Assembly (NCBI GenBank): GCA_902529935.1
Contig: CABZYK010000003.1
Span: 64,787-128,786 of the forward strand
Length of the DNA stretch: 64,000 nt
Direction of reading: 5' to 3'
Source of the DNA: an uncultured SAR86 cluster bacterium
Lineage (GTDB): Bacteria; Pseudomonadota; Gammaproteobacteria; Magnimaribacterales; AG-339-G14
Part shown: positions 39,182-59,991 of the stretch, one piece after another
How the letters are laid out: each line of letters begins with the position of its first letter
Numbering within the stretch: position 1 is the first letter of the stretch
Notes under the pieces: generated by a model
The model's input: the letters and a program-made list of their open reading frames with translations, nothing else
Told to the model about the DNA's origin: nothing
The model's database searches: none
Made by a program: the position numbers and the translations under genes

Positions 39182-39185
39182 ATTT

Positions 39186-39437: not shown

Positions 39438-39460
39438 GCTCAAATAATAGGACTTATGAA

Positions 39461-39475
39461 CGACAAAATATGTCG
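39461..39475. promoter_or_regulatory. Operator-like site 3: CGACA-AAATA-TGTCG (perfect arms) in a divergent intergenic region
   Basis: It lies between the minus-strand 83-aa gene and the plus-strand nuclease gene. Like sites 1 and 2, it is preceded by TTATG. Confidence 0.6.
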
Positions 39476-40346: not shown

Positions 40347-40476
40347 TGAGGTTCAATCTAGGGCCCTCAGAAAATAGAACACTTCATAAAAATATCACAT
40401 AGGAATTAGATACCTATATTTCTCTATAATTTAAATAAATTGGAAATAATGAAAGAATTTGATAAAAAATAATCAT

Positions 40477-43400: not shown

Positions 43401-43716
43401 AAGTGACCCAGAAACAATTTCGCCTAGGTCTTTTTTTGATCTTCAACAAATTTTTAAACTAGTTGGGGAAAAAGATTCTAAAGTTTTTTATGATTGTAAA
43501 AATAAAGGAAAAGAAGTTTATAGACTGAGAAATGAATGTAAAAAAAGGCTTTTAGAAAAGCTTCAAGATGTTCGGTTTGATGTTGATCAAGATGAAATCT
43601 CATTGATTATTAATGAAAAGCAGATTTCCTTTGGTGTTTATGAGATTAATGCTACTAAAGATATAGTTGTGGAATCATCTCATTTACACAAAATACAAAA
43701 TCTAGATCAGTTCTAA
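40477..43716 (+). CDS. Orphan 1080-aa protein (a DrmE-like role is possible by context only)
   Basis: The ATG at 40477 is preferred over the TTG at 40459. No NTPase or nuclease motif recognised. The segment YLLEENDVISDDYGIFGLVDDVYAI resembles the DUF1232 motif. The stop overlaps the next start (TAATG). Confidence 0.7.
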   Translation: MSWFLERDRADFLEKEVKSSIDRKKQEVNRNITYKDHVNILTEFMDQGYIHENFLINVIWFFHRCRLDQSYSNILESFIENFQKAVELQKAIETEAPSSGSGDFLAYTNTLINIFTLEFQQNRLDTPSIASCLSAEEKDRINKKITDFEEISFLNEKAGYLDKTKQMKILEKFSKSSHFEKVSYQLDFLMDIATGSGDESTIAEAPLNYLLEENDVISDDYGIFGLVDDVYAISESYYKLRNRNDLGRLVQSFNHEHENFYIPNLQDENKPISLVNVEDIVKAALAKENEDYFKRLLVLSDIGPLPIFIALGKAIIERQKHSHFGQDDVKFDSGENLVFFNEKNDTRIVATYAGKRGQDFDQNLLSDNKDDEVLNDMYALWVDKEKSSIQYVTEAFIKTAKPTSRRISTKKNIYKFFNSLEEKPLNHWARYNFPEGITSIRHEKKLFILGQKNKILDFLDLNLFNKSIKSWLGLREFTKDGKCINHEQQANQLFPDPYIYLFADSGAFTDALENQWHETCSETERSEPELIITCEDNYLRDEYLLDTLKRCEADVLVLSSFINNYEINKTAANGFDQIPVKPNDYLSDLNISGIDPVSRFFSRSKDFKISIENTKNNFIENFYSIRNLLKDLLLEERHKFIKRCLYRIIENLQNRILPLNEEEKVNFQENFEILLNELHEISANNSKVKRAINLLADLKQDAEDFHKFEEIKDFCIKNNELKTVILCHKRQKERLNFLISEEGLNATAETFTNLEKIEIVGKILVAIAQKREISQKLKMYRYAQEICFLLNDEERKSHLNTLKRLEKYFNNYFPSSEVKEEIIEEVEDFSSSFTEESIDFTYTAAKSKFSGEADSSVEAKMLLLDDEQIYFSRNRRDVLFISRRRGDSIEYGKTEDLLSGDKIVISEEFSGNEILHLLMNKEEKLKYPELEGQAQIWQDKLKEYKNENHMDIYQLTAALKDNGVDRHFATVRNWLSDPETISPRSFFDLQQIFKLVGEKDSKVFYDCKNKGKEVYRLRNECKKRLLEKLQDVRFDVDQDEISLIINEKQISFGVYEINATKDIVVESSHLHKIQNLDQF

Positions 43717-45440
43717 TGTTAACGCTCATTCCTCAATATCAACCTAAAAAAGATAACAAAGGAAAAATGATTCCTAAAGCAGAAGTGAGCTTTTTTGAAA
43801 CAATAAAAAAACAAAAGGATCAATTAAATGAGTGGATGGTTTTTTGGAATATTCATATTGATGAGCATCTTTCAAAGCAAGATGGTCAAGTTGATTTTAT
43901 TTTTCTTGGGAAAAAAGGGCTGTTCGTTGTCGAGGCTAAAGGTGGAGATAGTTACGTTGTAAAAGGAAATAAACATTATTATTTTTACAAATCCCAAGGA
44001 ATGAATTCTGATTATGCGCAAAATGAATCCGCCTTAACTCAGGCAGAAGGAAATATGCGTTCTATCGAGAATTATATAAGAAACAAAATACCCACAACTA
44101 AGGTCAATATTAAGAAACGAGTTATTGGATTTGGAGCTGTTCTTCCATTTATCGATACCACTAATATTGATTCAGGAATTCAATTTAACAGTGGACAAAT
44201 TTATGGGTCTCAATCAACAAGCATCTCAGATTTTCTTGATTTTTTAATAAAGCATAGCAAGGCAAAACTGCAAGGAGAAAGAGAGCAATTTTCGGACTCT
44301 GAGTTAAACGTAATTAGAAACCATCTTCAAATTGAAATGAAATGCGTCAGTAAATTTTATCTTTCTCAATCTGAACATAATGAAATTATGATGCTAGAAA
44401 GCAATCAACAAACTCTGGCAAGCTATTTTTTATCTAAATCTCACTCAAGATTTTTAATTGAAGGCGGGGCAGGAACTGGAAAAACAGTTTTAGCAAAGTA
44501 TTTTGCACACAGCTTAATTAATGATAACAAAAAAGTTTTATGGATTTCCTTCAATAAGTTGTTTACTGAGCATATAAAAGAATATTTTGGCGATATTGGC
44601 AAAATTGAAATTATTTCAGCTACAAAATTTAAAATGAACATAATTAAACAAAATACTGGACAAATAGTCACGACCGGTGTTGAAGACAATGATTTTGATA
44701 AAAAATTTCTTGAAGCTGCAAGTATGGATAAAGACTCTTTAGATTATGACTTCATTATTATGGATGAAGCACAAGATATCCTCAGTGGTGATTTTTTTTG
44801 GGGGATGGACGAATTAATAAAGGGAGGATTTGATGAATCATCATGGGCAATTTTCTTAGACTCTGAATCGCAAGCACATGTATTCAACCGCCTAGATCGC
44901 GATGCTTTGCAGCATTGCAAGCAAAAATCTGATTTTGAAGAATCACTTATTGAGAACTATAGAAATCCTAGAAAAATTGTAAAAAATTTATATGAATATT
45001 TGGGAAAAGAACCACCTGAAGCTAAAAGAGAATTTGAAGGAGAGATTATAGAAAAAAAAGTACAAGAATCTTTGGAAAAAACCCTTTTGAATATAGTAAA
45101 AAAAGAGGACAAACCAGTTGTTCTATCTACAGTAGCGGAAATTAAATTTTTTGGAGATAAGTTTGATAATAAGAAATTTTTTGAGTTAAGCAATGAAAAA
45201 TATTTTCTACAATCTCTCGGAAATGAAAAAATAAGCCAAACAGTTTTAAGAAATTACGATACAAGAAAAGCTAAACCCATAGAAGCAACAAACATTCATA
45301 CCTTTAAGGGACTAGAAAGTGAAGTGATTATTCTCGTGATTGATAAAGAAGAACTCGAAGAGAAAAGAGAAGAGTTCTCTTATCGATACTATACTGGATT
45401 ATCCAGAACATTGGGAAAAGCATATTTAGTATTAACTTAA
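43716..45440 (+). CDS. NERD-domain nuclease-like + SF1 (UvrD-like) helicase fusion
   Basis: N-terminal NERD pattern (QVDFIFLGKKGLFVVEAKGG), Walker A GGAGTGKT, Walker B IIMDEAQD, NYRNP, and C-terminal IHTFKGLESEVIILV. Confidence 0.8.
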   Translation: MLTLIPQYQPKKDNKGKMIPKAEVSFFETIKKQKDQLNEWMVFWNIHIDEHLSKQDGQVDFIFLGKKGLFVVEAKGGDSYVVKGNKHYYFYKSQGMNSDYAQNESALTQAEGNMRSIENYIRNKIPTTKVNIKKRVIGFGAVLPFIDTTNIDSGIQFNSGQIYGSQSTSISDFLDFLIKHSKAKLQGEREQFSDSELNVIRNHLQIEMKCVSKFYLSQSEHNEIMMLESNQQTLASYFLSKSHSRFLIEGGAGTGKTVLAKYFAHSLINDNKKVLWISFNKLFTEHIKEYFGDIGKIEIISATKFKMNIIKQNTGQIVTTGVEDNDFDKKFLEAASMDKDSLDYDFIIMDEAQDILSGDFFWGMDELIKGGFDESSWAIFLDSESQAHVFNRLDRDALQHCKQKSDFEESLIENYRNPRKIVKNLYEYLGKEPPEAKREFEGEIIEKKVQESLEKTLLNIVKKEDKPVVLSTVAEIKFFGDKFDNKKFFELSNEKYFLQSLGNEKISQTVLRNYDTRKAKPIEATNIHTFKGLESEVIILVIDKEELEEKREEFSYRYYTGLSRTLGKAYLVLT

Positions 45441-45456
45441 GCTTAATATTAAATGC

Positions 45457-47400
45457 CTAGATGTTGAGAAAATACCCTTTTGCATTTTCTGAATCTTCTG
45501 TAAGCAAATTTCTATCTAATAGGATATTTTTTGGAAACGAACAGCACGCTAAATCTGGGACCATAAGACAAGCGTGGCAACCCGCCAAATTCATGCCATT
45601 TAAAGCCTGACCTTTTGAATCGCTACAAATTGGGTCATTGGAACAAAACCTAGAATTTTCGATAGCATTATGTAAAAGATTTTCAAATAATTCTGGTTTA
45701 ATCATTCTAACCAACCCCCCTAATGATCCAGACGAGTCTGCAGATGCCGTGTAAATTAATAATCCTGCCATTTTTTTTTCCTTACTGTAATAAATTCTTT
45801 CTAGCAATTCTGTGATTCCGTAACCACATTCTGCTGCTAGTTGATTCATCAAAGAATGAGAAAATGAATGGATCATCACATAACCCGGATCAAATGATTC
45901 TGATCTGCTTAACTTTTCAAATAAAAAAGTATTTTTTGCGTTACTTTTTATTAAATTAGCTCTTTCAAGAAAATATGGATTTTCATCGAGCCAAGAGGAA
46001 ATTTTTTCATATCCAAAGTCTATAAAAATTCCTTCTCCTGTAACCTCGATACAAGGAAGAAAATCTACTAATTCTCTTGCAGCATTGAATTTTTCCTCTG
46101 GGGAGACACTACTAAGCGATTCTGCTTGACGTTCAAATCCCAACAAAGCAGTTGCCGTTTTGACTTTCTTTACCTGATGAAGGCTTGAGAAAAAATTAGA
46201 AATATTCTCATTCTTATAACTGTCTAAAGATATTTTAGATGCAATAAAATCATCGTCATCAACCTTATCTTGAATAAGAGTTTGATACTCTTTATAAAGA
46301 AAATCCTTATCAAGTTCCTCAGAATTAAGACGTTCGATTGGTTGCTCATATATCTTGCTGAAATGAGTAGTTATGATTTGGGTAGCTTGATCAAGATCTA
46401 AACTATATTGTTCATGTATCCCAGTATTATCCAGAGTATCCCTTAACGAATCCATTACATCAGGATTATCTAAAGCCTTATTTATAAACCTTGTTATTAA
46501 GTCATCATCCAGAAGGGGAGATCGTATACTCTCTGGATCTGGAACAAAAATTGCACTTTTATGAATTGGCAGATAAATTTTCGAAGCTCCTCTTGGTTGA
46601 ACATCAACAATCTCATCACATTTTTCACTGTCGCCTAGCCAAGGTCTTTTCCCATCACATGAAAATATTTTTCTGCCGTCTCTATCAAGAATTTCCTTTC
46701 TATTGTCAATTTTATTAATGCCAGTTAAAGGTTTTGACTTTCCACATTCAGCGCAAGTTATTCTTAAGCTAGAAAAACCTGCTCCAGTTCCATTATCATC
46801 TAAATAAAGAGATGGGCTATTGTGACTATGATTTTTTGTGAGCATTTTACATCCATCATCGCAACTTGTTGACATCAGCCTGTCCCAGTTAATATCTTGG
46901 ATGTGACCTTTCTGACAAAAAGATATGAATCTAACAGGCTCAGTTTTAGATCCCCATCGTGAATCGTTACAAGGTGAACCTTTTTTCCATTTAGGCAGTC
47001 TTGGGTTAGAACAACGTCTAGAGGTTGCAATTGGACTATGTTTCATCAAAGCATTACAGCTCATACAAATCGACCACTCAGGAAATATCGATACTGGTAT
47101 TTTTCCAGCTATAGGATGAAAAGAAGGCTGATATTGATCGTATTCAACTGGCGGTTCAACAAGTTTTCGTATATTAATATAGTGCCGAGGAGAGTTTTCA
47201 AAATTTTTAAGAACTATATTTAGGTAGTCAACGAACCTTTGATTGTTAATTTTTAAGTTATTTATCTTATCGGGAGTGAGATCCCATTTATCAACAGACA
47301 TTGTCATTCCAGGAAAGTCAACGTAGTCATAGGTCGCACCAACACCAAAGGTAGTAACTATTTGACTTCTTCTTAAATCATTATTGCTATTGAATGGCAT
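45457..47400 (-). CDS. drmB: DUF1998-domain protein, DISARM DrmB-like
   Basis: C-terminal Zn-type Cys cluster FCSNDPICS...GCHACLMVPDLACCSFPKNILLDRNLL is typical of DUF1998. A 14-nt overlap with the upstream helicase gene. Confidence 0.8.
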   Translation of the reverse strand: MPFNSNNDLRRSQIVTTFGVGATYDYVDFPGMTMSVDKWDLTPDKINNLKINNQRFVDYLNIVLKNFENSPRHYINIRKLVEPPVEYDQYQPSFHPIAGKIPVSIFPEWSICMSCNALMKHSPIATSRRCSNPRLPKWKKGSPCNDSRWGSKTEPVRFISFCQKGHIQDINWDRLMSTSCDDGCKMLTKNHSHNSPSLYLDDNGTGAGFSSLRITCAECGKSKPLTGINKIDNRKEILDRDGRKIFSCDGKRPWLGDSEKCDEIVDVQPRGASKIYLPIHKSAIFVPDPESIRSPLLDDDLITRFINKALDNPDVMDSLRDTLDNTGIHEQYSLDLDQATQIITTHFSKIYEQPIERLNSEELDKDFLYKEYQTLIQDKVDDDDFIASKISLDSYKNENISNFFSSLHQVKKVKTATALLGFERQAESLSSVSPEEKFNAARELVDFLPCIEVTGEGIFIDFGYEKISSWLDENPYFLERANLIKSNAKNTFLFEKLSRSESFDPGYVMIHSFSHSLMNQLAAECGYGITELLERIYYSKEKKMAGLLIYTASADSSGSLGGLVRMIKPELFENLLHNAIENSRFCSNDPICSDSKGQALNGMNLAGCHACLMVPDLACCSFPKNILLDRNLLTEDSENAKGYFLNI

Positions 47401-50400
47401 CTTGAGTTTGTTCGTTTTTAACTATTTCTACTTGTAAATCAGAATTTCGCATACTTGTTGGAGCAGAAAAAACAGCACCCTCACCAACAGGAAATCCAGG
47501 GTCAAAAAGTCTCGTGTCAGATGGTCTTCCTCCCATTTTACCCCATTCATCAATATTGCCAGATTTTTTCCAACGATCCTTAATTCTCTTTAATTCATTT
47601 TTTACCATATCAAGCTCTTCCGGATCTGATTTTTTTACTGAATCTAGAATCCAATCTTCAGCTAATTTAAATCTTTCCTTGTCTTCTTTTTCACTATAAG
47701 TGGGATTATTTATATCTTTCCCAAAACTTAAAACAAGTGAAGCAAAAATTGCAGGCAAACCTCGTTTTCTGGCTCCCGAAGAGAAGGGTGTAACACTCAC
47801 AGTCTCAACATATCTATAGATAGACTGATGATAATTTTTAAACATTTCATAAATAGATCTATCTTTGGATTTTGCATGATTAAAAATAGTTACAACTAAA
47901 CCGGGATTTCTTCGCCCTACTCGTGAAGAAGCTTGAATGTATTCCGCAGTAGTTTTAGGCTGACCATGAACTAACATAAGGCCTAGTCTTGGGATATCTA
48001 CCCCCACTGAAATCATATTTGTTGCTAATAAAATATCTATTCCTTTAACTGTATCTTCGGCGCTTCTAAAAGTTTGAGTCCAAGGAATATTGATTTCTTC
48101 TAAGATGCTTTCTATTTCATCTTGACTTCTTCTGCCGGTCAATTCTCTTATCTTTTTAATTTGTCTCGAGAACCTTGTGAGCTTATCATCAACAGATCCA
48201 AATTTCCCTCTGTTAAAATTTTTTGCATTTCTTCTTAAGGAAGCATTGAGATTTTGTTTCTGATTGCTCATGTAGGCTAGCTCTCTTTTACTGTTGAAAT
48301 ACCATACGGCAGTTCCAAAGGGATCAAAAGACATCTCTTTTGAAGTTGGCAAAGGATATATAGTGTCTCCTTCCGCTAAGTTATGATTAAATTTTTCTTT
48401 TAAACCTAATTTAAATCCTAGTTCATCAGCTTTTTCTATATAGCTTATATCGTATTTAGCGACTTCCTTTCCATCGTAAAAAGTAAAGCTACTATCTTCT
48501 TTCAACGATGATAGTGGAGAGACGTAAAGATGATCAACTCCTTTCTTGACTTTTGATTTAGTCATTGGAAGTATGTCATTTGGGCTCTGAAGTAATGGAA
48601 TTGCTGCTGAAACGGAAGACTCAATCATAGAACCTTTCGAAGAGCCAAAATAACCCATATAAATCCTACCTGGTACATCCTTGGTATCTCTCTCAGTAGC
48701 AAAAAAAGAATCTTCCCAATCAATTACTTGCGGGGGGAAAATATTGGATCTCCTACCGCGGTAAAGAGATTTAGCCTGATCACCCGAAAAAGTAAGAGTA
48801 GCTGAAGCACCAACTATTTTCGGTATCTGATTTTCAGTTGACATTAGTTTCATGACAACATTTTCAAATAAACCAACCATAGTTCCTAGAGGTCCAGAAA
48901 TTAAATGAAGTTCATCCTGAATTATCATCTCTGGAGGATCGTATTGGTCATTTTTAATTAACTCTATGGCCTCTTTTCGCCAACATAATTTAGCAAAGTT
49001 ATCTACAGTCCCCAGAAGCAAAGTTGGCTTTTCTTGAAAAATTGATTCTTCCCATAAGAACACGGGCAATTCTTCATAGAAAATACATTTTTTATCAGAA
49101 CACTTTATTATTGCCTTCCCCTGTCTGCGAACATAGCCTCTGTCATCTGGATGAGAAATTTTTGATTTACACCAAGGGCATTGATGAAGAACGAACTTAT
49201 AATTTCCTTGATCATCTTTACCAGATCGATCTTGACCATTTAATATTCTAATTGCATTTGCATGAGTATTTGGATTACCTTTTGAGCCTATCCAAAGTCC
49301 CAAAGATATCATTTTATCTCCTAGATTTAGATTTAGAATTCCATGTCTTCTGATAAATTCCAGAGCACAAATTAAAGCTGAAGATCTCCTAAATTGATCA
49401 GAAGTAAGTAATCTCAAGGTATATCTCATTAATGAAGTTACCCCAGCATTATTTGGATTTCTGAGTCTTCTTAATAAAATGTTGAAAGCAATCAAACCTA
49501 AATAAGCCTCAGTTTTTCCACCGCCAGTTGGAAACCAAATCAGATCTACTTGTTCTCTTAATTCAGAATATTCTTCTGGCTCTACTATTTCGGGCAATAT
49601 AGTAAGGATGAATGCTATTTGAAATGGTCGCCAACTTCCCTTTAGCCCTGTATGCTTTAAGTTCTTGAGTGATTCAATAAATTCAAGCTCTAATTCAAAA
49701 TTTTGATCCTGGTCTTTTTTAATAATTAGTTCTTCATCCTTATCTTTTTTTTCTAACTTATTTAAACGATTCATCTGAAGCAGCATTGCATGATTCATAA
49801 GTCTGAAGCATTTATCAGCCTCATCGTTTTTCTTAATCATATTTAATCCAACTTTCATTCTGCTTAAACATTCCCGAGCATTTGACAGATTTTTCTCAGC
49901 TATTTGCACGAAAGCATCATCCAAAGTATTTTTTTTGTTTTCTTGATCGTCTAGCCAATTTGAATAATTCTGAATAAGATCTTCTAAAGGTTGATATCTA
50001 CCGCTAGTATCTTCATCATTGAGATCGGCAAATTTACTCATGCTTAAATTATCTGAATCTAGTGCTTGTATGCTTTTTGTTTCAAAGGTTGGCACAAAAG
50101 AAGACGAAATAATTTTACAATCATTAGAATTATGATTTTCCTCCCAATCTGAGGCGCAACCCTTTCCAATTGCATAAGACCTCTTGTTTCTGAAAAGTAA
50201 ATCTAGAGTCTCTGCATTCTCTCCATATCCTGATTGGAATGGATTTTTTATAGGTAAAAAACCTGAATCTAGATTTTCTATTTTCATACCTACTTGATAA
50301 TAAATATCCTCTTCATTTTTGCTTTTATTAAACATGGAGATGGAACAAATAATTTTGTCTCTTTTTCTAAATACTTTTACCGAAATAGATAGGCTTTCAT

Positions 50401-50899
50401 TAATCTCGAGAAGCTGAGATCCCAACGCAATATCAACTTCGATTTCATCAATCGTCTTATTTCTTTTCCAAGTATCATTTTCTTTTTTATATTTTGAAAA
50501 GCCGTATAAAATTTTTAATCTATCATCTGTTGCTAGCAAGAAATTCAATCCGAACGCAGAAGGATTATTTTGGGTGGACAGATCGATTATATTTGAAGAC
50601 TCAGAATTGTCTTCATCGTCATCAGCCTCAGGTTGATAGCCTAAACCGGTGTCATTTTCTATTTCTTCTTCTTCAACTTCAATTTCAATGGATTCATTTT
50701 CATGATCAGATGATGAAGAAATGTCAGTTATTTGAGGGTATAAAATTCCTGATATAAATTGATATTTGGGATTAACAGTAATTTCTTCCTCAAGTTCATC
50801 TTCCCAATTACCTCCATAAATTGTTTTTTTAAAGTCACCTATGACTGCTTTTCTAGCTTGAAGAAATTCTTCAAGATTGGGATTAGGTAAGTTTTTCAT
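47387..50899 (-). CDS. drmA: Large SF2 helicase, DISARM DrmA-like
   Basis: FPTGGGKTEAY (motif I), IIQDELHLISGPLG (motif II), ATNMISVGVDIPRL and YIQASSRVGRR (motifs V/VI), behind a ~430-aa N-terminal region with an acidic tract. Confidence 0.8.
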   Translation of the reverse strand: MKNLPNPNLEEFLQARKAVIGDFKKTIYGGNWEDELEEEITVNPKYQFISGILYPQITDISSSSDHENESIEIEVEEEEIENDTGLGYQPEADDDEDNSESSNIIDLSTQNNPSAFGLNFLLATDDRLKILYGFSKYKKENDTWKRNKTIDEIEVDIALGSQLLEINESLSISVKVFRKRDKIICSISMFNKSKNEEDIYYQVGMKIENLDSGFLPIKNPFQSGYGENAETLDLLFRNKRSYAIGKGCASDWEENHNSNDCKIISSSFVPTFETKSIQALDSDNLSMSKFADLNDEDTSGRYQPLEDLIQNYSNWLDDQENKKNTLDDAFVQIAEKNLSNARECLSRMKVGLNMIKKNDEADKCFRLMNHAMLLQMNRLNKLEKKDKDEELIIKKDQDQNFELELEFIESLKNLKHTGLKGSWRPFQIAFILTILPEIVEPEEYSELREQVDLIWFPTGGGKTEAYLGLIAFNILLRRLRNPNNAGVTSLMRYTLRLLTSDQFRRSSALICALEFIRRHGILNLNLGDKMISLGLWIGSKGNPNTHANAIRILNGQDRSGKDDQGNYKFVLHQCPWCKSKISHPDDRGYVRRQGKAIIKCSDKKCIFYEELPVFLWEESIFQEKPTLLLGTVDNFAKLCWRKEAIELIKNDQYDPPEMIIQDELHLISGPLGTMVGLFENVVMKLMSTENQIPKIVGASATLTFSGDQAKSLYRGRRSNIFPPQVIDWEDSFFATERDTKDVPGRIYMGYFGSSKGSMIESSVSAAIPLLQSPNDILPMTKSKVKKGVDHLYVSPLSSLKEDSSFTFYDGKEVAKYDISYIEKADELGFKLGLKEKFNHNLAEGDTIYPLPTSKEMSFDPFGTAVWYFNSKRELAYMSNQKQNLNASLRRNAKNFNRGKFGSVDDKLTRFSRQIKKIRELTGRRSQDEIESILEEINIPWTQTFRSAEDTVKGIDILLATNMISVGVDIPRLGLMLVHGQPKTTAEYIQASSRVGRRNPGLVVTIFNHAKSKDRSIYEMFKNYHQSIYRYVETVSVTPFSSGARKRGLPAIFASLVLSFGKDINNPTYSEKEDKERFKLAEDWILDSVKKSDPEELDMVKNELKRIKDRWKKSGNIDEWGKMGGRPSDTRLFDPGFPVGEGAVFSAPTSMRNSDLQVEIVKNEQTQDAIQ

Positions 50900-50911
50900 A
50901 CTTAATAATAA

Positions 50912-52204
50912 TTAAAATCTTTTATGGGTGAGCAATATATTTTTGAAGTGCTTTCCAATCTCATAAGCAAGCTTTACTGGAACAGCATTTCCTATCTGAG
51001 TATATTTAGGAACCTCTCTTTCAAAATTTAACTCCTTAGGATTTCCTGCTCTTCTGATACCACCTGTGGTTCTTTTTCCGCAGAACTTATACCAATCTGG
51101 AAAAGTTTGTAATCTTGCCCATTCTCTTACAGTTAGAGACCTAGGTTGAGCATAATGCACAAAATCATCAGGCAATGAGGTTGCAGTAATAGTCGGTCCT
51201 TTATTACCCCATCTTTTTGGTAAAAGTCTTTGGGCAAATTTTTTAGTTTTGAGGTTCTCTGGAATTTGACCATTGTTTTTTAGCATGTAAGCGAATTTTT
51301 CTTCAACCTTTTGAGAGTGATTGCTATATTTATGATCAGTTAAAGTATCTCCTTTCATGGAAATTTTATTTGACCGAAAACCTTTTCTTATATTTCTTTG
51401 CCATTTATTTTTCGGATTACTCGGATAGACATTAGTTTGACCACCATTAATAAACTTTCTATCAATTATGTCAGAAAAAACTTCATCCAGATTTGGATAA
51501 TCGTATTTAGGTGCGGGAAGAAAACCATTTAGTAAAGCGTCATGATCATTAACTAAATTCACAGGAATTTTTTTATTAATTCCAATTATCAGAACCCTAG
51601 GTCTATTTTGTGGAACCCCATAGTCTTTTGAAAAAATTAGCTTAAATTTAACGTTATAGTTTGTAATTTTTTTAAAGGCATTTAAAACTTCATAAAAAAC
51701 TTCACCTTTTCTTCCTTCAGGATTCCATTTTGATCTAAGTAGGCCTTGAACGTTTTCGAATAAAAAAATCTTTGGTTCAACTCTTCTTATGAAAAACGCC
51801 ATATCTTGGAACAAGTGATTGGATGGAAGCTGATCTCTCTTAACAGGATAAGATCTTCTGATGCCTAATCGAGAAAATCCCTGACAAGGAGGCCCACCAA
51901 CCACTAAATCAACAGTATCTTTTGAGAAGTCTCTTTGAAAGGAAAGTTCCAATTCATTGAATAAATTCTTAAAAAAATTTCTTTTATAAATCTCATCCCT
52001 TAAATCATGAGAATGAAATTTCTCTCTTAAGTGGGGATAATTTTTATCTCTATTAGAAAGATATGTTTCAAGAGCATCTACATTCAATTCGTTGACGTAT
52101 AAAGGAAAAAAACCAGCTTGTTCAAGGCCTAAAGATAAACCACCACATCCCGCAAACAAATCAATGAATGTTAGTTTATTCTTCTCTATTTTGAGTTTCT
52201 TCAA
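50912..52204 (-). CDS. drmMII: DNA (cytosine-5) methyltransferase (DrmMII-like position)
   Basis: Motif I FIDLFAGCGG, motif IV GGPPCQGFS, motif VI FENVQGL, motif VIII QNRPRV, motif X GNAVPV. Confidence 0.9.
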   Translation of the reverse strand: MKKLKIEKNKLTFIDLFAGCGGLSLGLEQAGFFPLYVNELNVDALETYLSNRDKNYPHLREKFHSHDLRDEIYKRNFFKNLFNELELSFQRDFSKDTVDLVVGGPPCQGFSRLGIRRSYPVKRDQLPSNHLFQDMAFFIRRVEPKIFLFENVQGLLRSKWNPEGRKGEVFYEVLNAFKKITNYNVKFKLIFSKDYGVPQNRPRVLIIGINKKIPVNLVNDHDALLNGFLPAPKYDYPNLDEVFSDIIDRKFINGGQTNVYPSNPKNKWQRNIRKGFRSNKISMKGDTLTDHKYSNHSQKVEEKFAYMLKNNGQIPENLKTKKFAQRLLPKRWGNKGPTITATSLPDDFVHYAQPRSLTVREWARLQTFPDWYKFCGKRTTGGIRRAGNPKELNFEREVPKYTQIGNAVPVKLAYEIGKHFKNILLTHKRF

Positions 52205-53078
52205 GTTGCTCTGCTCCCTTATTCAACTCTCTTCCCAAGACATTAATTCTAGTTTGCATATTTGAAACTTCTTTTACAGAAGCGTCTAATTTCGTCAACA
52301 CCTTTTCGGTACTGGCATCAAACTGTTTGAATTGATCTTTAATTTTTCTGACAACTTCTGCCACCAAGCCGGCCGTTTCATTCAGCCTTAAATAGTGATG
52401 CCCCATCCTTACTGTATCTAAAAATGCTGCCAAAGTATTTGGACCTTGTATTAATATTCGTTTTTGAGAGAGGCAGTCTTGTCTAAGGTTTTCAATTTGA
52501 CCTATTAAATCATTAAGTTTTTCGGAGGCTAAATAAAGGATTCCATAATCTGTGGTGGTATTTTGCAAAATGTATTTATTAGCAATATCATCTGCGTCGT
52601 TTAGGATCGCTGTTTTAAGTTGTCTTAATACCCTAGATTTCTCTGTTTGAGTTTTTGCTTCGTGATAATTGCCATAAAGTCCAGCATAAAACTTCGAATC
52701 AATCGGAATTAGCAGGCCATCAGCAGTCGAGACTGCACAATCTACTTGATCTTGAGTCCTAGGGTTAATGATATGTTGAAAGTTAAAGCTACCCTCAGGC
52801 ATGATCTCGCTGACAATAGATTCGAGACTCCACTCACCTAATCTGCCGGTAGAAACGTTGCCTCCTAAAAATCTATTTAATTCATTTATTGGGGCTGTAA
52901 CAGACTGCAATTGATTTTCAATTTCATTGATGTCTTTAGTGACTACGTCCAATTTATTTTCAAGATATTCTGAAGATGAAGTTTCTTTTATATCTTTGTC
53001 TCTAATTTTTATAACAAGGAACCCTAAAAGACCTAAAGTAATTGAAGATAAAAGAATGGCAACTACATTTAAGATCAT
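52176..53078 (-). CDS. rmuC: RmuC-family protein (short, 300 aa; N-terminal TM + coiled coil + RmuC nuclease-like domain)
   Basis: AILNDADDIANKYI, YGILYLASE and KRILIQGPNTLAAFL match RmuC-domain blocks, from memory. It overlaps the methyltransferase start by 29 nt. Confidence 0.7.
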   Translation of the reverse strand: MILNVVAILLSSITLGLLGFLVIKIRDKDIKETSSSEYLENKLDVVTKDINEIENQLQSVTAPINELNRFLGGNVSTGRLGEWSLESIVSEIMPEGSFNFQHIINPRTQDQVDCAVSTADGLLIPIDSKFYAGLYGNYHEAKTQTEKSRVLRQLKTAILNDADDIANKYILQNTTTDYGILYLASEKLNDLIGQIENLRQDCLSQKRILIQGPNTLAAFLDTVRMGHHYLRLNETAGLVAEVVRKIKDQFKQFDASTEKVLTKLDASVKEVSNMQTRINVLGRELNKGAEQLEETQNREE

Positions 53079-54077
53079 TTAATAAATATCCTTTAATTTC
53101 AATGCTAATTCTTTAAATTTTGCTCTCAAGGCTTTAGGTGCGAGCACTTCTACATCGGCACCAAAACTCATAAGCCATTGTTCAAATTGTAAAGTATCTG
53201 GAACTCTTGCTGTAACTAATAATCTTCCATCTGATAATTCTTTTTCAGTCTGAGTACCATTGAGTTTTGTTTCCGTTAAGTGCGCCGCCATGGTTTTATT
53301 AAATATTGCTTTAAAAGTATAAAGTTTATCGCTGTTTGTAAATCCGAGGTTATTGGTATGAATAAAATCATCCAAACTAAAATTCTCAGGTTGCTTTATT
53401 TTTTGATCTGTTAATAACTCAACCTCTTTAAACCTATGAATTGGTAGATATCTCGGCGTTATAGGATCTTCATCCATCATGCATATAAGATAAGTCATGC
53501 TCCCTTTCACAACGATTGCCATTGGATGCATATGCCTTAAATCAGCTTCTTTTTCTCCTCTCTTTCGATACAAAGCTTTCAGTTGAATACCTTCGAATAC
53601 TGCTTGATATATTTTTTGTCTGATTTCTGATTTTACTGGCGCTTCCTTAAAGCGGATTGTCTCAGGAATCACACGGACCCTTTTCCGCCATCTCAAAACA
53701 TTTGATTTTTCATTACCGGTAAGAACTTTTTCAGCTCTTTTAAAAAATTTTTCTACTCTTTTAAAGCTTGCTTTAGGCATAAGAGGCTCTAAATATTGGG
53801 CCGCCAGTGAAAAGGTAAGAGCTTGTATTGGGTCCATAGCAGGAAATTCATATCCTGGTGAATCTTTCTTCCAACTCCACCCAAAAGGGGTGCTTCTGTC
53901 ATCGCATTCAATGGGAAAAATTCTGGAAAGTTCATTTAAATCCCTTTGCACAGTTCTAAGGCTTGTTTCATAACCAAAGTTATCGAGACCTTGTTTTATT
54001 TCTGTTGCAGTAACTTTGACCGGGTATCTTTTTATTAACTCAGTCATTTTGATCATTCTTAAGACGCTATCGCTCAT
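53079..54077 (-). CDS. wHTH-WYL-WCX transcriptional regulator (BrxR / CapW / YafY type)
   Basis: N-terminal wHTH (TSLRTVQRDLNELS). WYL-like core (LKALYRKRGE...HPMAIVVKGSMTYLICMM...RYLPIHRF). C-terminal WLMSFGADVEVLAPKALR. Its stop abuts the rmuC start. Confidence 0.85.
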   Translation of the reverse strand: MSDSVLRMIKMTELIKRYPVKVTATEIKQGLDNFGYETSLRTVQRDLNELSRIFPIECDDRSTPFGWSWKKDSPGYEFPAMDPIQALTFSLAAQYLEPLMPKASFKRVEKFFKRAEKVLTGNEKSNVLRWRKRVRVIPETIRFKEAPVKSEIRQKIYQAVFEGIQLKALYRKRGEKEADLRHMHPMAIVVKGSMTYLICMMDEDPITPRYLPIHRFKEVELLTDQKIKQPENFSLDDFIHTNNLGFTNSDKLYTFKAIFNKTMAAHLTETKLNGTQTEKELSDGRLLVTARVPDTLQFEQWLMSFGADVEVLAPKALRAKFKELALKLKDIY

Positions 54078-54099
54078 GTCATAATTTTATAGTTTATGC

Positions 54100-54120
54100 T
54101 AACGACAGATTATGTCGTTA
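54100..54120. promoter_or_regulatory. Operator-like site 2: perfect 8-bp-arm palindrome TAACGACA-GATTA-TGTCGTTA upstream of the WYL regulator gene
   Basis: Centred 33 nt upstream of the ATG at 54077. On the minus strand it reads ...ACGACATAATCTGTCGT..., with a -10-like CATAAT inside the site. Confidence 0.75.
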
Positions 54121-54193
54121 AAATAATTTTTTCACATATTATCAATCAGATAGAAGATTGCCACTAAGATTACGAAAGCAATTAATCCAAGAG

Positions 54194-55171
54194 TCATTTT
54201 CTCAGCCTCTGATACCCGCTCAAATGAATAATGCTACTTTGTTTGGATATAGCTCCTAAGGAAATATCTAGCTGAGGATAATTTAAAACAACCTCGCTGC
54301 CCTCATAAGGCCCTGGTAATACCTTTTCTTTCAGACTTTTGATTAAGGTAACAAATTTATCTTTGATCTCACTTTTACTAAAAGGCGTTCGATATATTAA
54401 ATAAGGATCTTTTGAATTTTCAAGTTCTATAGCATCGATTAGAATGCTTCTTGTTAGTTTTTTTGAATATTTAGAATATAAAGCAGGTGAATTAAAGAAT
54501 TCAATTCCTAGACAAGTATTTTTTAAATAAAAAATGAACCCAACCTGATCTTTTAATTCTTTAACTTTTAAAGATAGCTGTTTAAGTGAAGAGTTTGCAT
54601 TTCTGTAAGTATCATTTATGGAGGATGTAAGGGATCTTACGTTCATATTTCTTTGCTTTTCTTGAATATCTTTCCATACTTCAGACTGATTTGAATGTTT
54701 TCTGCCCGTATTTATTTTCGATTCATTTACATAAAACATCTTGTTTCCTTTTGCTCTAAAATTATGTAAATCGTCTGAATAGTTAAATTTGCCGTAAGTC
54801 GATGACCATCTGTTCTGTTCAACACAACTTACGTCCATCATGAATTCACCATGGCCAGAAAGTAAAGTGGAATCATTGAGAGTTCTATTTTGCTTAGCTC
54901 CTTCAATTATTTCTCCATTGAGCAAAAGAACATCTTGACCAGATTTATTTTTAATTTTTACCTTACTAACGTCTCCTGTTTCCATAACTTCAAAATCATC
55001 AAGATTTATGGCTTCTTCAAGAGATAATAAATTGCTTGAGGAGAATTCATTTAGCTTTTTAGTAATAGGGAAGAGGGTAAGAGTTTCACTAATTTCTTCT
55101 CCTTGAAGTATTAAAAGTTGATTAATTTCTTTTTCTAATTCGCTTGATTGGGCATTTCTGATGTCTGTCAT
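54194..55171 (-). CDS. Hypothetical 325-aa protein (contains LLNGEIIEGAKQNRTLN...VSCVEQNRW block; possibly DUF6569/ARPP-1-like, from memory)
   Basis: Clean ORF with a 4-nt overlap with the upstream DUF4258-like gene. The family call is unverified. Confidence 0.55.
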   Translation of the reverse strand: MTDIRNAQSSELEKEINQLLILQGEEISETLTLFPITKKLNEFSSSNLLSLEEAINLDDFEVMETGDVSKVKIKNKSGQDVLLLNGEIIEGAKQNRTLNDSTLLSGHGEFMMDVSCVEQNRWSSTYGKFNYSDDLHNFRAKGNKMFYVNESKINTGRKHSNQSEVWKDIQEKQRNMNVRSLTSSINDTYRNANSSLKQLSLKVKELKDQVGFIFYLKNTCLGIEFFNSPALYSKYSKKLTRSILIDAIELENSKDPYLIYRTPFSKSEIKDKFVTLIKSLKEKVLPGPYEGSEVVLNYPQLDISLGAISKQSSIIHLSGYQRLRK

Positions 55172-55446
55172 TTTAAGTAGATCCTTTTTGTAATTTTCAT
55201 AGCTGTGATAACTACATCACCATTGCAAACGACAGCAGTATTTTTGATGAATTTGTCATAGGATTTTAAGAAATCTTTATGTTCGTATTTAAGTGAGCGC
55301 AATATCTTTTTTGGGATAAAGTATTTTTTATTTCCATGAGTGTTCAAAGATTTTCCATTATCAATAATGAATTTCACAACCTTAGGAGGAATTCCCCTAT
55401 TTTGGCAGCGATGCTTCGCGTGATTAGTAAATATAGTATCTTTCAT
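55168..55446 (-). CDS. DUF4258-like small protein (toxin-like fold)
   Basis: The ATG at 55446 is preferred over the TTG at 55455. FTNHAKHRCQNRGIPPKVV resembles the H..R...RGI signature of DUF4258. Confidence 0.55.
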   Translation of the reverse strand: MKDTIFTNHAKHRCQNRGIPPKVVKFIIDNGKSLNTHGNKKYFIPKKILRSLKYEHKDFLKSYDKFIKNTAVVCNGDVVITAMKITKRIYLK

Positions 55447-55448
55447 AT

Positions 55449-55481
55449 ATGACAATATATGTCATATGACAATTTATGTCA
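55449..55481. promoter_or_regulatory. Operator-like sites 4a/4b: two abutting palindromes ATGACA-ATATA-TGTCAT and ATGACA-ATTTA-TGTCA
   Basis: Read directly. They have the same half-site core and 5-nt spacer as sites 1-3, and lie in the divergent region between the DUF4258-like gene and the 513-aa gene. Confidence 0.6.
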
Positions 55482-55525
55482 AATATAATATTTGTTATAT
55501 GCTATAATAAAACATATAATAAATT

Positions 55526-57067
55526 ATGGTTGATATTCCAAAAGGCAAATCAGCATTTAATCTTCTATTTGATAAGAATTTTAAGCACGCTGAAGAACAG
55601 TTGGCTAAAGCAAGCTTATTGATTAATGATTCATCAATAGATGAGTTTGCAATTTTATTTAAATTAGCTGAAATCCTTGATTCCAATTTTGTTAAAGCTG
55701 ATCTATCACCTATAAATAAAGAGCTTTTTAAATTATTGCTGAATGAAGATTCAAAGATAGGCAAGGTTTTTTGGCATTCGCTAGCAAAATGCTTTTCTCA
55801 GCAAGATACAACATACAATTCTATTGATGCCGAAGAATTAATTTCTATTCTGATGCTTTTAGAAAAAAATGGTTCAAAAGATCTGTACCAAAACTTTAGG
55901 GACTTTATAGCAACAAATGGTCTTTTAAGATCGTCTTCAAAGAGACATCTTGAATATACTTCAATAGCAGAGGAAGCAGGTCAGTCTTCTCTGCTTGATC
56001 TTGTTTTTGAGCTAGATTTTTTTACAAACTTTATAAGTGAACACAAGAATATTCTTTCAGATATTTTTTTGTTTTCTCTGGGCATTAATCCACATATAGG
56101 ACACTCTTTAAAAGAAGATTTTTTCCCTGCAATTAAGGATAAACAAAAATTGATATTCTTAGAAAAAAAGGGCTTAGCTAAAAAGTCTTCTAAAGAATCC
56201 TCAAAGCAATATCATCTATATATGAATTATGGGGAAAACCATGAGATTTTCCTAAAAAAATTGTCTTCATCAAACGAGGATAATGAAGAAAGATACGTCC
56301 AGTGTGAATTCACTCACCGTGAAGAGTTACTGTTACTTAGCGATAAGTTTAATGCATTTGAAAATCTTTTCATCAGTATGATGAATAGTGTAAAAGTCGG
56401 CGATAACATAATGTATCGAAAGGAGAGTTTTACTGAGATATTCATTCAAGAAATGGTTACAAACTATACTTCTGAGTGGAGTAATTTCGAACAAAATTTG
56501 ATGAGTGTTGGCATATTTGTTGACTATGAAGATCTTGAAATTGATGAAATGGATGAACCTTTTCTAAATATCTCAGACTTAGTAGAAAAAGTGTTTCTGG
56601 TATTTTTTAGTTACGCAAAGAAGTTACTCGCATCTCTTTCTTCCCTAATTGATGGAAATAGTGTCACTCCTGAAAGCGCATGTATCTTACTTGAGCTAAG
56701 AAATCCAAAAACAATTTTAAATGCAATAGCTAATGAAAATACTATTCTCAAATGGGCTGAATTCGGAAACAAAACCTCTTTTACTTATATCGATAAATTA
56801 TCCTTTATAGAATGGGGGTTGGAAAAGAAGAGGAAAAATAGACTTCCGAAAATACTTTCCCTCAAAAATCTAAGCAAAAATATCGAACTACAAGACTTAA
56901 CGGCCATAAAAAATAAGTTAGATGCTGTTTTTACAGAAAATTTACCTCGCTCTGATATTATCAAAGAGGATTTGATGAATAAAATTATATCCAACAAAGA
57001 TTTAGGACAATTGACTTATGATGAAAGTCTTATTTTAGATAAGGTTTTTAGTTCGCTAGATTATTGA
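55526..57067 (+). CDS. Orphan 513-aa protein
   Basis: Long clean ORF. No motif recognised. Confidence 0.65.
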   Translation: MVDIPKGKSAFNLLFDKNFKHAEEQLAKASLLINDSSIDEFAILFKLAEILDSNFVKADLSPINKELFKLLLNEDSKIGKVFWHSLAKCFSQQDTTYNSIDAEELISILMLLEKNGSKDLYQNFRDFIATNGLLRSSSKRHLEYTSIAEEAGQSSLLDLVFELDFFTNFISEHKNILSDIFLFSLGINPHIGHSLKEDFFPAIKDKQKLIFLEKKGLAKKSSKESSKQYHLYMNYGENHEIFLKKLSSSNEDNEERYVQCEFTHREELLLLSDKFNAFENLFISMMNSVKVGDNIMYRKESFTEIFIQEMVTNYTSEWSNFEQNLMSVGIFVDYEDLEIDEMDEPFLNISDLVEKVFLVFFSYAKKLLASLSSLIDGNSVTPESACILLELRNPKTILNAIANENTILKWAEFGNKTSFTYIDKLSFIEWGLEKKRKNRLPKILSLKNLSKNIELQDLTAIKNKLDAVFTENLPRSDIIKEDLMNKIISNKDLGQLTYDESLILDKVFSSLDY

Positions 57068-57173
57068 AGAATACAGAAGGTGATTAAATAAGAAACCCCT
57101 AAAGTTTTGGGATTTCATTACGGAATATATTGACGCTTTAAGAATATTAAACAAAAAGTTGAGAAGAGGAATT

Positions 57174-57680
57174 ATGAATAATAAATCTTTAGCTAGGGCA
57201 AAAGAGATAGCCTTTAAGGTCCATGGAGAACAAGAGGATAAAAAAAACTATCCGTATATGGCTCATATATTAGATGTTGCATCGCGAGTTTCTCATCTTG
57301 GAGAAAGTTACGAAATAGTTGGTTTATTGCATGATGCAATAGAGGATGCTGAACCTGAAAGCCTTAAAAAAGAAATAGTAGCGGAAATAAAGAAAGAGTT
57401 TTCTGAAGAAATACTTGAGGCGATATTTGCAGTGTCTAAGCAAAAGGATGAAGATTATTTTTGTGAATATCTACCGAGGTTAAAGAGAAACAAGATCGCT
57501 CTTAAGGTCAAAATAGCAGATTCATCACACAATCTCTCGAAAGCACATTTAATTGAAAACAAACAGCTCCAGCAGAAGCTTAGGAGTAAGTATATTAAAG
57601 TGCTAAACCAGCTTGGGGTAGATGGTAAAAATCTCGAAATACCTTTAGTTTATAAAGATAAAAAGTGGAAAAAGTTGTAA
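57174..57680 (+). CDS. HD-domain (p)ppGpp-hydrolase-like protein (small alarmone hydrolase type)
   Basis: The ATG at 57174 has AGAGGA upstream. AFKVHGEQEDKKNYPYMAHILDVA and VGLLHDAIEDA are the RelA/SpoT-type HD hydrolase blocks. Confidence 0.7.
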   Translation: MNNKSLARAKEIAFKVHGEQEDKKNYPYMAHILDVASRVSHLGESYEIVGLLHDAIEDAEPESLKKEIVAEIKKEFSEEILEAIFAVSKQKDEDYFCEYLPRLKRNKIALKVKIADSSHNLSKAHLIENKQLQQKLRSKYIKVLNQLGVDGKNLEIPLVYKDKKWKKL

Positions 57681-57736
57681 TTCATCTTTATTCATAGGTA
57701 AAACCACCGAAGCGGATAAATTTTGAGGAAATTATT

Positions 57737-58189
57737 ATGAAAATTGTTTATGTAGACATGGATAAAGTTTTGGTAAATTTTCAAAGCGGAATAAATGCTT
57801 TAACGGAAGAAGAAAGAACGGCATTCAAAGATGATCCAGATGATGTGCCTGGAATATTTTCAAAGATGAAACCTGTCGATGGTGCGATCGAAGCCTATGA
57901 AAGACTTTCAAAGCACTTTGATGTTTATATTTTATCTGCAGCCCCTTGGAACAATCCTTCCGCATGGACAGATAAACTCTTATGGGTAAAGAAGTATTTG
58001 GGTGACTTAGCTCATAAAAGATTAATACTTAGTCACAACAAGAATCTAAATATCGGAGATTATTTAATAGACGATAGAACGGCAAATGGTGCAGGAGAGT
58101 TTAAAGGTGAACATATTCATTTTTTGAGTGATGAATTTAAGAATTGGAATGATGTGCTTAATTACTTAATTCCAAACGAAGAAAAGTGA
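57737..58189 (+). CDS. 5'(3')-deoxyribonucleotidase (HAD superfamily, NT5C type)
   Basis: IVYVDMDKVLVNF (DxDxV/T nucleophile motif), YILSAAPW and YLIDDR match the NT5C family. Confidence 0.7.
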   Translation: MKIVYVDMDKVLVNFQSGINALTEEERTAFKDDPDDVPGIFSKMKPVDGAIEAYERLSKHFDVYILSAAPWNNPSAWTDKLLWVKKYLGDLAHKRLILSHNKNLNIGDYLIDDRTANGAGEFKGEHIHFLSDEFKNWNDVLNYLIPNEEK

Positions 58190-58244
58190 AAGAAGCATCT
58201 CAATTAAATTTTTTTTTAATCTTTAGTTGTAAAGAATCGATTTA

Positions 58245-58967: not shown

Positions 58968-59013
58968 TGTTCGAAAACAGACTCTTTTTTAAGGTTTATA
59001 TCAGAAAAGTTAT

Positions 59014-59937: not shown

Positions 59938-59991
59938 TGCTAATCTAAACTTGAGTATCGAAGTATAAACCATCAAAACAATATTGAATGC

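Follow-up and report, generated by a model that had tools for sequence, protein, structure and literature searches.

Gene Content of the Locus

The window analyzed here, a 64,000-nucleotide (64-kb) stretch of a contig from an uncultured SAR86 cluster bacterium (GCA_902529935.1, CABZYK010000003.1), carries the genes of a DISARM-like system beside a gene for an RmuC-family protein (rmuC) and a gene for a WYL-domain regulator. A first-pass annotation, made from the sequence alone, had described a DISARM-like core (DrmA, DrmB, and a C5 cytosine methyltransferase) inside a non-canonical five-gene operon led by the WYL and rmuC genes and devoid of the phospholipase D (PLD) gene drmC, and had interpreted it as a possible undescribed DISARM subtype. 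The features on which the following analysis is based comprise a minus-strand array, a convergent plus-strand operon, and two palindromic sites:

45457-47400, minus strand: drmB, 647 amino acids (aa), DUF1998/MZB zinc-binding partner of DrmA
47387-50899, minus strand: drmA, 1170 aa, superfamily 2 (SF2) helicase of the YprA type
50912-52204, minus strand: C5 cytosine DNA methyltransferase gene, 430 aa, TTG start, DrmMII-type and also type-II-like
52176-53078, minus strand: rmuC, 300 aa, short membrane-anchored RmuC with a PD-(D/E)xK nuclease
53079-54077, minus strand: WYL regulator gene, 332 aa, HTH-WYL-WCX, YafY/BrxR-like, head of the array
39537-40346, plus strand: gene for a Cys-rich, Cas4-like PD-(D/E)xK nuclease, 269 aa (Pfam PDDEXK_1, 30 bits; PADLOC Cas4)
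40459-43716, plus strand: gene for a DrmE-family protein, 1085 aa (NCBIfam NF038316, DrmE_fam, 88.9 bits)
43716-45440, plus strand: gene for a NERD (PD-(D/E)xK) nuclease fused to a superfamily 1 (SF1)/UvrD-like helicase, 574 aa, hereafter NERD-helicase
54100-54120: candidate WYL operator, a perfect palindrome TAACGACAGATTATGTCGTTA with the core CGACA-N5-TGTCG, positioned 23-43 nucleotides (nt) before the start codon of the WYL gene
39461-39475: likewise a candidate WYL operator, the second exact copy of the core CGACA-N5-TGTCG, preceding the plus-strand operon by 62 nt

Profile searches matched all three families of the proposed core, the 1170-aa and the 647-aa protein being recognized as DrmA and DrmB, respectively. 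DrmA achieved 619 bits with the PADLOC DrmA profile and matched the solved Serratia DrmA (PDB 7S9V_A, E = 2e-118), while DrmB scored 395 bits with NCBIfam DrmB_fam (cut-off 240), contained the Pfam MZB domain, and matched PDB 7S9V_B over its full length (E = 2e-46). The methyltransferase was assigned to Pfam PF00145 (DNA_methylase, 213 bits) and obtained a higher score for PADLOC MTase_II (272 bits) than for DrmMII (164 bits). All motifs quoted previously were found in the translations, namely FAGCGG, GGPPCQGFS, ENV, QNRPR, and GNAVP for the methyltransferase, GGGKTEAY, DELH, and SSRVGR for DrmA, and the C-terminal Cys cluster for DrmB.

The five minus-strand genes and their junctions had been reported exactly: according to the open reading frame (ORF) calls, the WYL gene abuts rmuC at 53079/53078 (0 nt), rmuC overlaps the methyltransferase gene by 29 nt, a gap of 12 nt precedes drmA, and drmA and drmB overlap by 14 nt. 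The span of the array, given as reaching 54128, was correct for the genes and incorrect for the WYL start, as the first in-frame start is located at 54077; the 51 nt between 54078 and 54128 represent promoter DNA upstream of this start and hold the palindrome. Such an array would be co-transcribed from the WYL gene to drmB. Same-strand gaps across the window featured a median of 12 nt and were 15 nt or shorter in 22 out of 39 cases, at a coding density of about 91%. Tight packing is therefore normal in this genome, and packing alone represents weak evidence of functional coupling.

Neither a DrmC-seeded profile nor a motif scan identified a PLD gene in the 64-kb window, and a Pfam search of all island ORFs was likewise negative, which upholds the reported absence of a PLD-type DrmC. 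Three loose HxK(x4)D strings were considered as traces of a hidden PLD and rejected, since they are located in the helicase domain of the NERD-helicase, in an Nmad3 protein, and in a SnoaL-like protein, and none of them lies in a PLD domain. As a novelty, the lack of drmC does not hold, because this gene has been described as dispensable and often absent, and the identity of the DISARM nuclease has been called a mystery (PMC9142583).

The convergent operon had been overlooked when the system was delimited to the five minus-strand genes. These genes do form a contiguous, WYL-headed array in this genome, but they are not the functional system, as the DrmE-family protein and the NERD-helicase are conserved partners of DrmAB. 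The DrmE-family protein of the window obtained no PADLOC or Pfam match, and its orthologue in a related metagenome contig (L001) contains the Pfam domain DrmE_C. The NERD-helicase matched Pfam NERD (40 bits) and SF1 helicase families, as well as the PADLOC profiles RTasNERD-Hel, NERD+UvrD, and Nhi; a plasmid search with this protein yielded only an unrelated UvrD-like gene. The exact-sequence look-up returned no record for DrmA or the Cas4-like protein of the window.

A PLD-Less DISARM-Like Class with a NERD Nuclease-Helicase

In total, 160 DrmA loci, drawn from species representatives of GTDB and from metagenomes, were annotated by means of profiles seeded with the window proteins, 158 of them representing the background. 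The scan of genome contigs by the DrmA clade alignment contributed a background sample only, the matches listed being all distant (39% identity or less), and the metagenome scan provided two close-clade loci. A DrmE-like gene and a NERD-helicase gene were located directly upstream of drmA in 58 of the 158 background loci, originating from many phyla. A C5 methyltransferase gene was present within 10 kb in 49 of these 58 NERD-type loci, and a PLD gene within the same distance in none. Counting NERD-helicase orthologues directly upstream of drmA alone, 70 of the 158 loci were positive, never together with PLD; under stricter flank requirements, PLD was detected in none of 47 NERD loci and in 9 of the 56 loci without NERD (Fisher p = 0.0036). 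A true DrmC (Pfam PLDc_2) followed drmB only in loci without the NERD-helicase. Loci combining DrmE, NERD-helicase, DrmA, DrmB, and C5 methyltransferase but no PLD constitute a DISARM-like class that is widespread and unnamed.

Within this class, NERD and SF1 helicase domains were confirmed by Pfam in representatives of Alphaproteobacteria, Bacteroidota, Bacillota, and Actinomycetota, and the residues E23, D60, and E73-x-K75 as well as the Walker A/B motifs were 100% conserved among 73 orthologues. Pairwise distances determined for 39 complete loci correlated with those of DrmA at r = 0.96 for DrmB, r = 0.91 for the NERD-helicase, r = 0.89 for DrmE, and r = 0.46 for the methyltransferase. The co-divergence of the NERD-helicase with DrmA indicates an integral, co-evolving component. 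How DISARM destroys DNA without drmC is an open question (PMC9142583), and an intact NERD nuclease-helicase occurring where PLD is absent offers a concrete candidate effector. It is reasonable to propose the NERD-helicase as the nuclease that acts in place of DrmC.

Alternatively, the NERD-helicase could be an independent Nhi-like defense gene embedded in the operon, leaving a DISARM-like system without a dedicated nuclease, as in drmC-less DISARM. Weak PADLOC matches to Nhi, AbiO, and NERD+UvrD candidate systems point in this direction, DISARM operons frequently harbor embedded defense genes (bioRxiv 10.1101/2024.01.29.577857), and one relative (L007) lacks the typical NERD-helicase and features a different gene of 715 aa after drmB. 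This explanation is nevertheless unlikely, given that the position of the gene between drmE and drmA is fixed in the 58 loci from many phyla, that its correlation with DrmA is near that of DrmB and far above that of the methyltransferase, and that it is strictly exclusive with PLD. The protein resembles Nhi and the NERD+UvrD proteins (PADLOC Nhi, C3a187) in that NERD is fused to an SF1 helicase and all catalytic residues are retained; unlike Nhi, to which its similarity is weak (PADLOC Nhi, 35 bits), it is a fixed and co-evolving part of a multi-gene DISARM-like operon.

DISARM class 2 is defined by the gene order drmE-drmA-drmB-drmC-drmMII (Ofir et al. 2018, as cited in PMC9142583, bioRxiv 10.1101/2021.12.28.474362, and PMC9252829). 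The window shares with it DrmA, DrmB, a DrmE-family protein, and a C5 methyltransferase, and drmE of the relatives likewise precedes drmA-drmB. In contrast to class 2, the window lacks a PLD-type DrmC, a NERD and SF1 nuclease-helicase is conserved between drmE and drmA throughout the class described here, and the window genes are divided between two convergent operons, with drmA-drmB following the methyltransferase gene. Since the PADLOC definition of type II requires DrmC, the locus would fail it. ‘Many uncharacterized DISARM-like classes’ were mentioned in the preprint by Bell et al. 2025, and a DrmC-less DISARM-like operon with extra helicases was described for SAR11 (bioRxiv 10.64898/2025.12.11.693642). 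Such unnamed operons agree with the window in DrmAB, the DrmMII-type methyltransferase, the extra helicase(s), and a marine streamlined host, and a marine alphaproteobacterial single-cell genome (L009) encodes methyltransferase-DrmE-NERD-helicase-DrmA-DrmB. Unlike in the present analysis, the NERD domain, the exclusivity with PLD, the WYL operator, and the slot linked to rmuC were not singled out in these reports. No paper naming a third DISARM class (‘class 3’ or ‘type III’) or the NERD-helicase as nuclease was found in the literature.

Gene Order in Related Loci

The closest relative was found on marine metagenome contigs (L001-L004), the DrmA of which is 64% identical to that of the window. 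In these contigs, drmE, the NERD-helicase gene, drmA, and drmB follow each other on one strand, and WYL, rmuC, and the methyltransferase gene are convergent to them. The segment drmA-drmB is located directly behind drmE and the NERD-helicase gene in seven relatives with readable gene order (L001-L004, the P0004 contig, L008, L089, L090, L191, L192, and L193), and two contigs of the same species as the window (L170/L171) show the matching downstream end of this arrangement. In L007, the order drmE-drmA-drmB is kept. The methyltransferase-first order noted initially is thus real in the window, but the order of the five genes is unique to this genome, the relatives being arranged differently.

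As the relatives keep drmA-drmB behind drmE and the NERD-helicase gene, the order in the window represents a private inversion of the two-gene segment. Its junctions correspond to 45441-45456 (16 nt) and 50900-50911 (12 nt) and have only short AT-rich strings in common. Inverted repeats around the segment, which could have caused the inversion or point to a programmed switch, were not detected above chance. At the first junction, the two convergent operons end only 16 nt apart, and no terminator-like structure was found between them.

Exchange of Cargo between Conserved Frame Genes

Clustering at 90% identity assigned 43 members to the cluster of the window RmuC, 25 to that of the WYL protein, and 125 to that of the Cas4-like protein, compared to a single member each for DrmA and DrmB. 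An identical WYL protein was encountered on at least 18 contigs with varied downstream cargo. On the right side, a block of about 94% nucleotide identity extends from 54125, 48 nt upstream of the WYL gene, to about 52194-52234 in the last approximately ten codons of rmuC; in line with this block end, the C-termini of RmuC differ between contigs. On the left side, a contig of the same species (L179) is 97% identical to the window between 29086 and 39478, and its Cas4-like gene shows 88.7% identity as far as 40331. In L179-L181, all from this species, a gene for a NERD and UvrD helicase occupies the place of drmE after the Cas4-like gene, and homology stops at 40331. Based on the block ends on both sides, the exchanged cargo spans approximately 40332-52193, which corresponds exactly to the genes for DrmE, NERD-helicase, DrmB, DrmA, and methyltransferase. 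The Cas4-like gene is a conserved frame gene at the left edge of this slot, its membership in the system being uncertain.

Several alternative cargos were recovered behind the WYL and rmuC genes. Those of L170/L171 consist of a C5 methyltransferase gene, a convergent gene for a restriction enzyme of the MvaI/BcnI family, drmB, and drmA; the methyltransferase gene is 83% identical to that of the window at the nucleotide level, whereas DrmA is only about 48% identical. L172 and L174 encode a 1104-aa protein with RNase_H_2 and an SF1 helicase matching Mokosh MkoA, and L173 carries an N6/N4 methyltransferase gene together with an unknown gene. Within the same population, the gene for the identical WYL protein and rmuC therefore precede at least three cargos, namely DISARM-like genes, a Mokosh-like helicase, and an N6/N4 methyltransferase. 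No tRNA, integrase, or recombinase gene was found in or beside the island, and the ORFs of the left flank (32-39 kb) obtained no Pfam matches. Concerning SAR86 defense islands, nothing specific was found in the literature.

The gene for the MvaI/BcnI-family endonuclease is located between drmB and the methyltransferase gene in L170/L171 (4310-5485) and in the P0004 contig. In other strains, the methyltransferase serves a type II restriction enzyme in addition to the DISARM-like genes. In view of this partner enzyme, the methyltransferase of the window may recognize CCWGG or CCSGG.

The WYL Regulator and Its Candidate Operator

The protein encoded at the head of the array matched Pfam WYL and WCX with 33 and 62 bits, respectively, as well as PADLOC WYL (PDLC01457, 88.6 bits, residues 6-316). 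WYL-domain PDB chains matched it at about 1e-6, and in one source the protein itself is named as a YafY-type regulator. The exact core CGACA-N5-TGTCG occurs only twice in the 64 kb. For copies with up to one mismatch, 0.47 are expected per window by chance, and three matches were obtained in 2 out of 100 shuffles. The third copy, CGACTGATTATGTCG at 37573-37587, deviates by one mismatch, shares its GATTA spacer and TTAA flank with the WYL site, and is positioned in intergenic DNA ahead of an unannotated ORF of 253 aa (37795-38556). Given this copy, the WYL regulon or the island may reach left to about 35.7 kb.

Among the fetched loci, which total 3.1 Mb, the exact core was located upstream of the WYL gene (L169-L178), at the left site of the window (L179-L181), at the head of the drmE operon (L001/L003), and at both ends of the island (L007, where the copy upstream of WYL is conserved as well); a single copy was found outside these places (L064). 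A further locus, L090, in which the WYL protein is only 29% identical, contains copies with one mismatch upstream of WYL and upstream of drmE. The window and three other lineages thus carry the palindrome, its arms being invariant while spacer and flanks vary, and loci without a WYL gene have no copy. From this distribution, the WYL protein is probably the regulator of both convergent operons by means of the palindrome. Its description as array head and probable regulator can be retained, but not its description as a new DISARM component; it is better regarded as a general regulator of the island.

The palindromes could instead represent recombination or attachment sites bounding a mobile island. 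The edges of the homology blocks (54125 and 39478) lie within a few bases of them, so that a role in recombination is possible, and in L007 two copies bracket the whole island. Autoregulatory palindromes are, however, typical of WYL/BrxR-type regulators. Moreover, all copies are intergenic and promoter-proximal (12-270 nt upstream of operon starts), they are confined to loci that have, or can be expected to have, a WYL gene, and no integrase, recombinase, or tRNA gene lies in or beside the island, which renders this explanation doubtful, although it deserves some consideration.

WYL regulators of the BrxR type have been reported to head defense loci, including Shield (PMC10270631), and BrxR/CapW-type regulators were characterized by Picton 2022, Luyten 2022, and Blankenchip 2022 (as cited in PMC10270631). 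The WYL protein of the window resembles them in its HTH-WYL-WCX composition, its first position in a defense operon, the upstream palindrome, and the varied defense cargos. Unlike BrxR/CapW, the window protein would also drive a core gene, rmuC.

RmuC and the Interpretation of the Locus

The RmuC of the window scored 150 bits with Pfam RmuC, and its catalytic residues E82/E86, D113, and D127-x-K129 are invariant. Residues 1-25 form a hydrophobic N-terminal helix, and the long coiled coil of canonical RmuC is absent. A homologue search with the 300-aa protein retrieved hundreds of proteins of 295-299 aa with 66-70% identity, named in their source ‘DNA recombination protein RmuC [SAR86 cluster bacterium]’; one exact sequence was present in 343 collection blocks, and one cluster comprised 1035 members. 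In eight genomes, the order dsbA-cytochrome c-GTPase-...-polA-dsbB-rmuC is followed by ordinary genes, with neither WYL nor defense genes. The two corresponding neighbors in the window are:

59992-62664: polA
59452-59976: dsbB

Amino-acid identities between the window and those genomes amount to 68.8% for PolA, 67.1% for DsbB, and 66.7% for RmuC, which means that RmuC has diverged to the same extent as PolA and DsbB, as predicted for vertical inheritance. In the window, the genes located behind rmuC in those genomes were recovered at 4.7-14.5 kb. The rmuC gene of the window is the orthologue of the core rmuC of SAR86, retained in the conserved position beside polA and dsbB, and it is a flanking or co-transcribed neighbor rather than a DISARM component.

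Taken together, we consider it likely that the locus of this streamlined, SAR86-like marine gammaproteobacterium is a defense-cargo slot, which currently holds a PLD-less, DISARM class-2-like system with a NERD-helicase and is located beside the core gene rmuC under the control of the WYL protein. The cargo (about 40.3-52.2 kb) comprises the DrmE-family protein, the NERD and SF1 nuclease-helicase, DrmA, DrmB, and the C5 methyltransferase. Following published DISARM work, the methyltransferase would mark host DNA, the DrmA-DrmB helicase complex would load on unmethylated or single-stranded invader DNA, and the NERD nuclease-helicase would cut the DNA, a role thought to be that of DrmC in canonical DISARM; in this way, the locus would confer protection against phages. 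Inward-facing conserved genes, namely the Cas4-like gene at the left edge and WYL-rmuC at the right, bracket the cargo, rmuC being a core gene of the organism itself that has kept its ancestral location by dsbB-polA. Exchange would proceed by recombination, with breakpoints in the last approximately ten codons of rmuC and the last approximately five codons of the Cas4-like gene. The WYL protein, most likely of the BrxR/CapW type, would bind CGACA-N5-TGTCG at both operon heads and thereby control whichever cargo is installed.

Some observations weigh against this interpretation. DrmA obtained 776 bits with NCBIfam DrmAS, which is under the equivalog cut-off of 950 and identifies the window protein as a divergent member, and the DrmE_fam score only just exceeded its cut-off of 80. 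The findings on PLD and rmuC in this genome cover 64 kb only. The background sample is skewed to query-like DrmA (pattern scan, best 80), so that class frequencies such as the 58 of 158 NERD-type loci are not population estimates. Regarding RmuC, L007 contains WYL-x-rmuC-drmE-drmA-drmB-x-methyltransferase as one co-directional array between two palindromes, which makes a functional link between WYL, RmuC, and DISARM possible, at an identity of its RmuC to that of the window of only 40%. A Myxococcales metagenome-assembled genome (L042) encodes a full-length, canonical RmuC of 512 aa (1467-3005) directly upstream of drmE-drmA-drmB-methyltransferase, which is a second, unrelated rmuC beside a DISARM-like operon. 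Finally, about 70 RmuC (ShdA) homologues inside DISARM-like operons, all in Pseudomonas, were already reported (PMC10270631), and an RmuC gene beside DISARM is therefore neither new nor restricted to SAR86.

These cases, together with the 29-nt overlap of rmuC with the methyltransferase start, its abutment to the WYL gene, and its intact catalytic residues, would fit the initial proposal that RmuC is an integral effector replacing DrmC in an undescribed DISARM subtype composed of WYL, RmuC, methyltransferase, DrmA, and DrmB. Conservation of the neighborhood offers partial backing: the close DrmA clade offers eight informative architectures, four of which place rmuC and five of which place WYL in an adjacent position; both adjoin DISARM-like genes in four (window, L001, L170/L171, and L007), but neither gene appears in the wider NERD-type class. 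Since rmuC resides at the same polA-dsbB position without WYL or DISARM genes, has diverged like its core neighbors, and follows the same WYL gene ahead of non-DISARM cargo, we regard a role as a new DISARM part as very improbable. Furthermore, rmuC is present in 0 of 58 NERD-type loci and is also absent from the close relatives L008, L191, and L193, and overlapping genes are normal in this genome.

A different possibility is that WYL and RmuC constitute a separate, two-gene Shield-like system, composed of a BrxR-type repressor and a membrane RmuC nuclease, beside the DISARM-like system. ShdA of Shield is an N-terminally membrane-anchored RmuC-domain nuclease, and Shield II of P. aeruginosa is preceded by a repressing BrxR-type WYL homologue (PMC10270631). 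Similarly, the window features a membrane RmuC, which has a hydrophobic helix at its N-terminus and retains an intact active site, behind a BrxR-like WYL protein and beside DISARM-like genes, as is also the case for the DISARM-associated ShdA of Pseudomonas, and WYL-rmuC represents a discrete, conserved block of 1.9 kb. Unlike Shield, the RmuC of the window is vertically inherited and fixed in the SAR86 core, and it occurs in sister genomes without WYL or defense genes, which is atypical for a defense gene. PADLOC assigned no Shield or other specific match to it, and Shield was reported in Pseudomonas only (PMC10270631), a genus to which the host does not belong. Hence, a Shield-like system is quite unlikely. 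It is less probable still that the cell's own RmuC was recruited as a shared, WYL-controlled effector, with sensor cargos plugging in by translational coupling at the 3' end of rmuC. If true, DISARM-like, Mokosh-like helicase, and methyltransferase cargos would be parts of a modular defense architecture built on a housekeeping recombination gene.

Regarding the locus as a cargo slot beside a core gene calls for caution concerning guilt by adjacency, as overlapping ORFs do not prove one system in streamlined genomes, and a core rmuC reads as a member of a defense operon only through the cargo inserted beside it. The results of interest are the PLD-less class with the NERD-helicase, the candidate WYL operator common to both operons, and the delimited cargo slot at rmuC. 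SAR86 is among the most abundant marine bacterial groups, and a swappable slot with defined breakpoints, at least three cargos, and common WYL/palindrome control is useful for studying the pan-immune system of streamlined oceanic bacteria.

Further Observations on the Flanking Regions

Directly upstream of the WYL gene, the window encodes an ARPP-1-domain protein (54194-55171, minus strand; Pfam PF20208, 216 bits). The nucleotide identity of this gene is only about 66% where WYL-rmuC reaches about 94%, indicating a hypervariable allele whose position is fixed. A 95-aa, toxin-like DUF4258 ORF (55168-55455, minus strand) overlaps the start of the ARPP-1 gene by 4 nt, and a 39-nt imperfect palindrome was identified in the divergent promoter region (55431-55500). 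Between dsbB and the ARPP-1 gene, the region 55526-59430 (plus strand) contains five genes, encoding an unknown 513-aa protein, an HD-domain protein, an NT5C 5'-nucleotidase, a DUF6994 protein, and an unknown 138-aa protein. This block is absent in L169 of the same species, where dsbB is located 62 nt from the ARPP-1 gene; it resembles a further variable slot and may represent a nucleotide-directed defense cassette.

Small conserved genes at the island borders, namely DUF7220, an ORF of about 69 aa, and an ORF of about 85-100 aa, were observed in two lineages. In L007, they are located outside both palindromes on opposite sides of the island (175-737 and 16950-17457), and in the window, the DUF7220-like gene and an 85-aa gene are found side by side at the left palindrome (38948-39443). 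A conserved protein of about 238 aa, which obtained no Pfam or PADLOC match, precedes drmE in L001-L003 (L001, 369-1082) and follows the alternative NERD and UvrD cargo in L179 (12660-13088); it is absent from the window. Farther to the left, the Nmad3 protein mentioned above (22614-23387, plus strand; Pfam, 179 bits) is encoded among otherwise ordinary genes, namely those for a TonB receptor, a CobW protein, and an esterase, and the stretch from 14.7 to 39 kb of the window is missing between rmuC and its downstream neighbors in SAR86 genomes of the L183 type.

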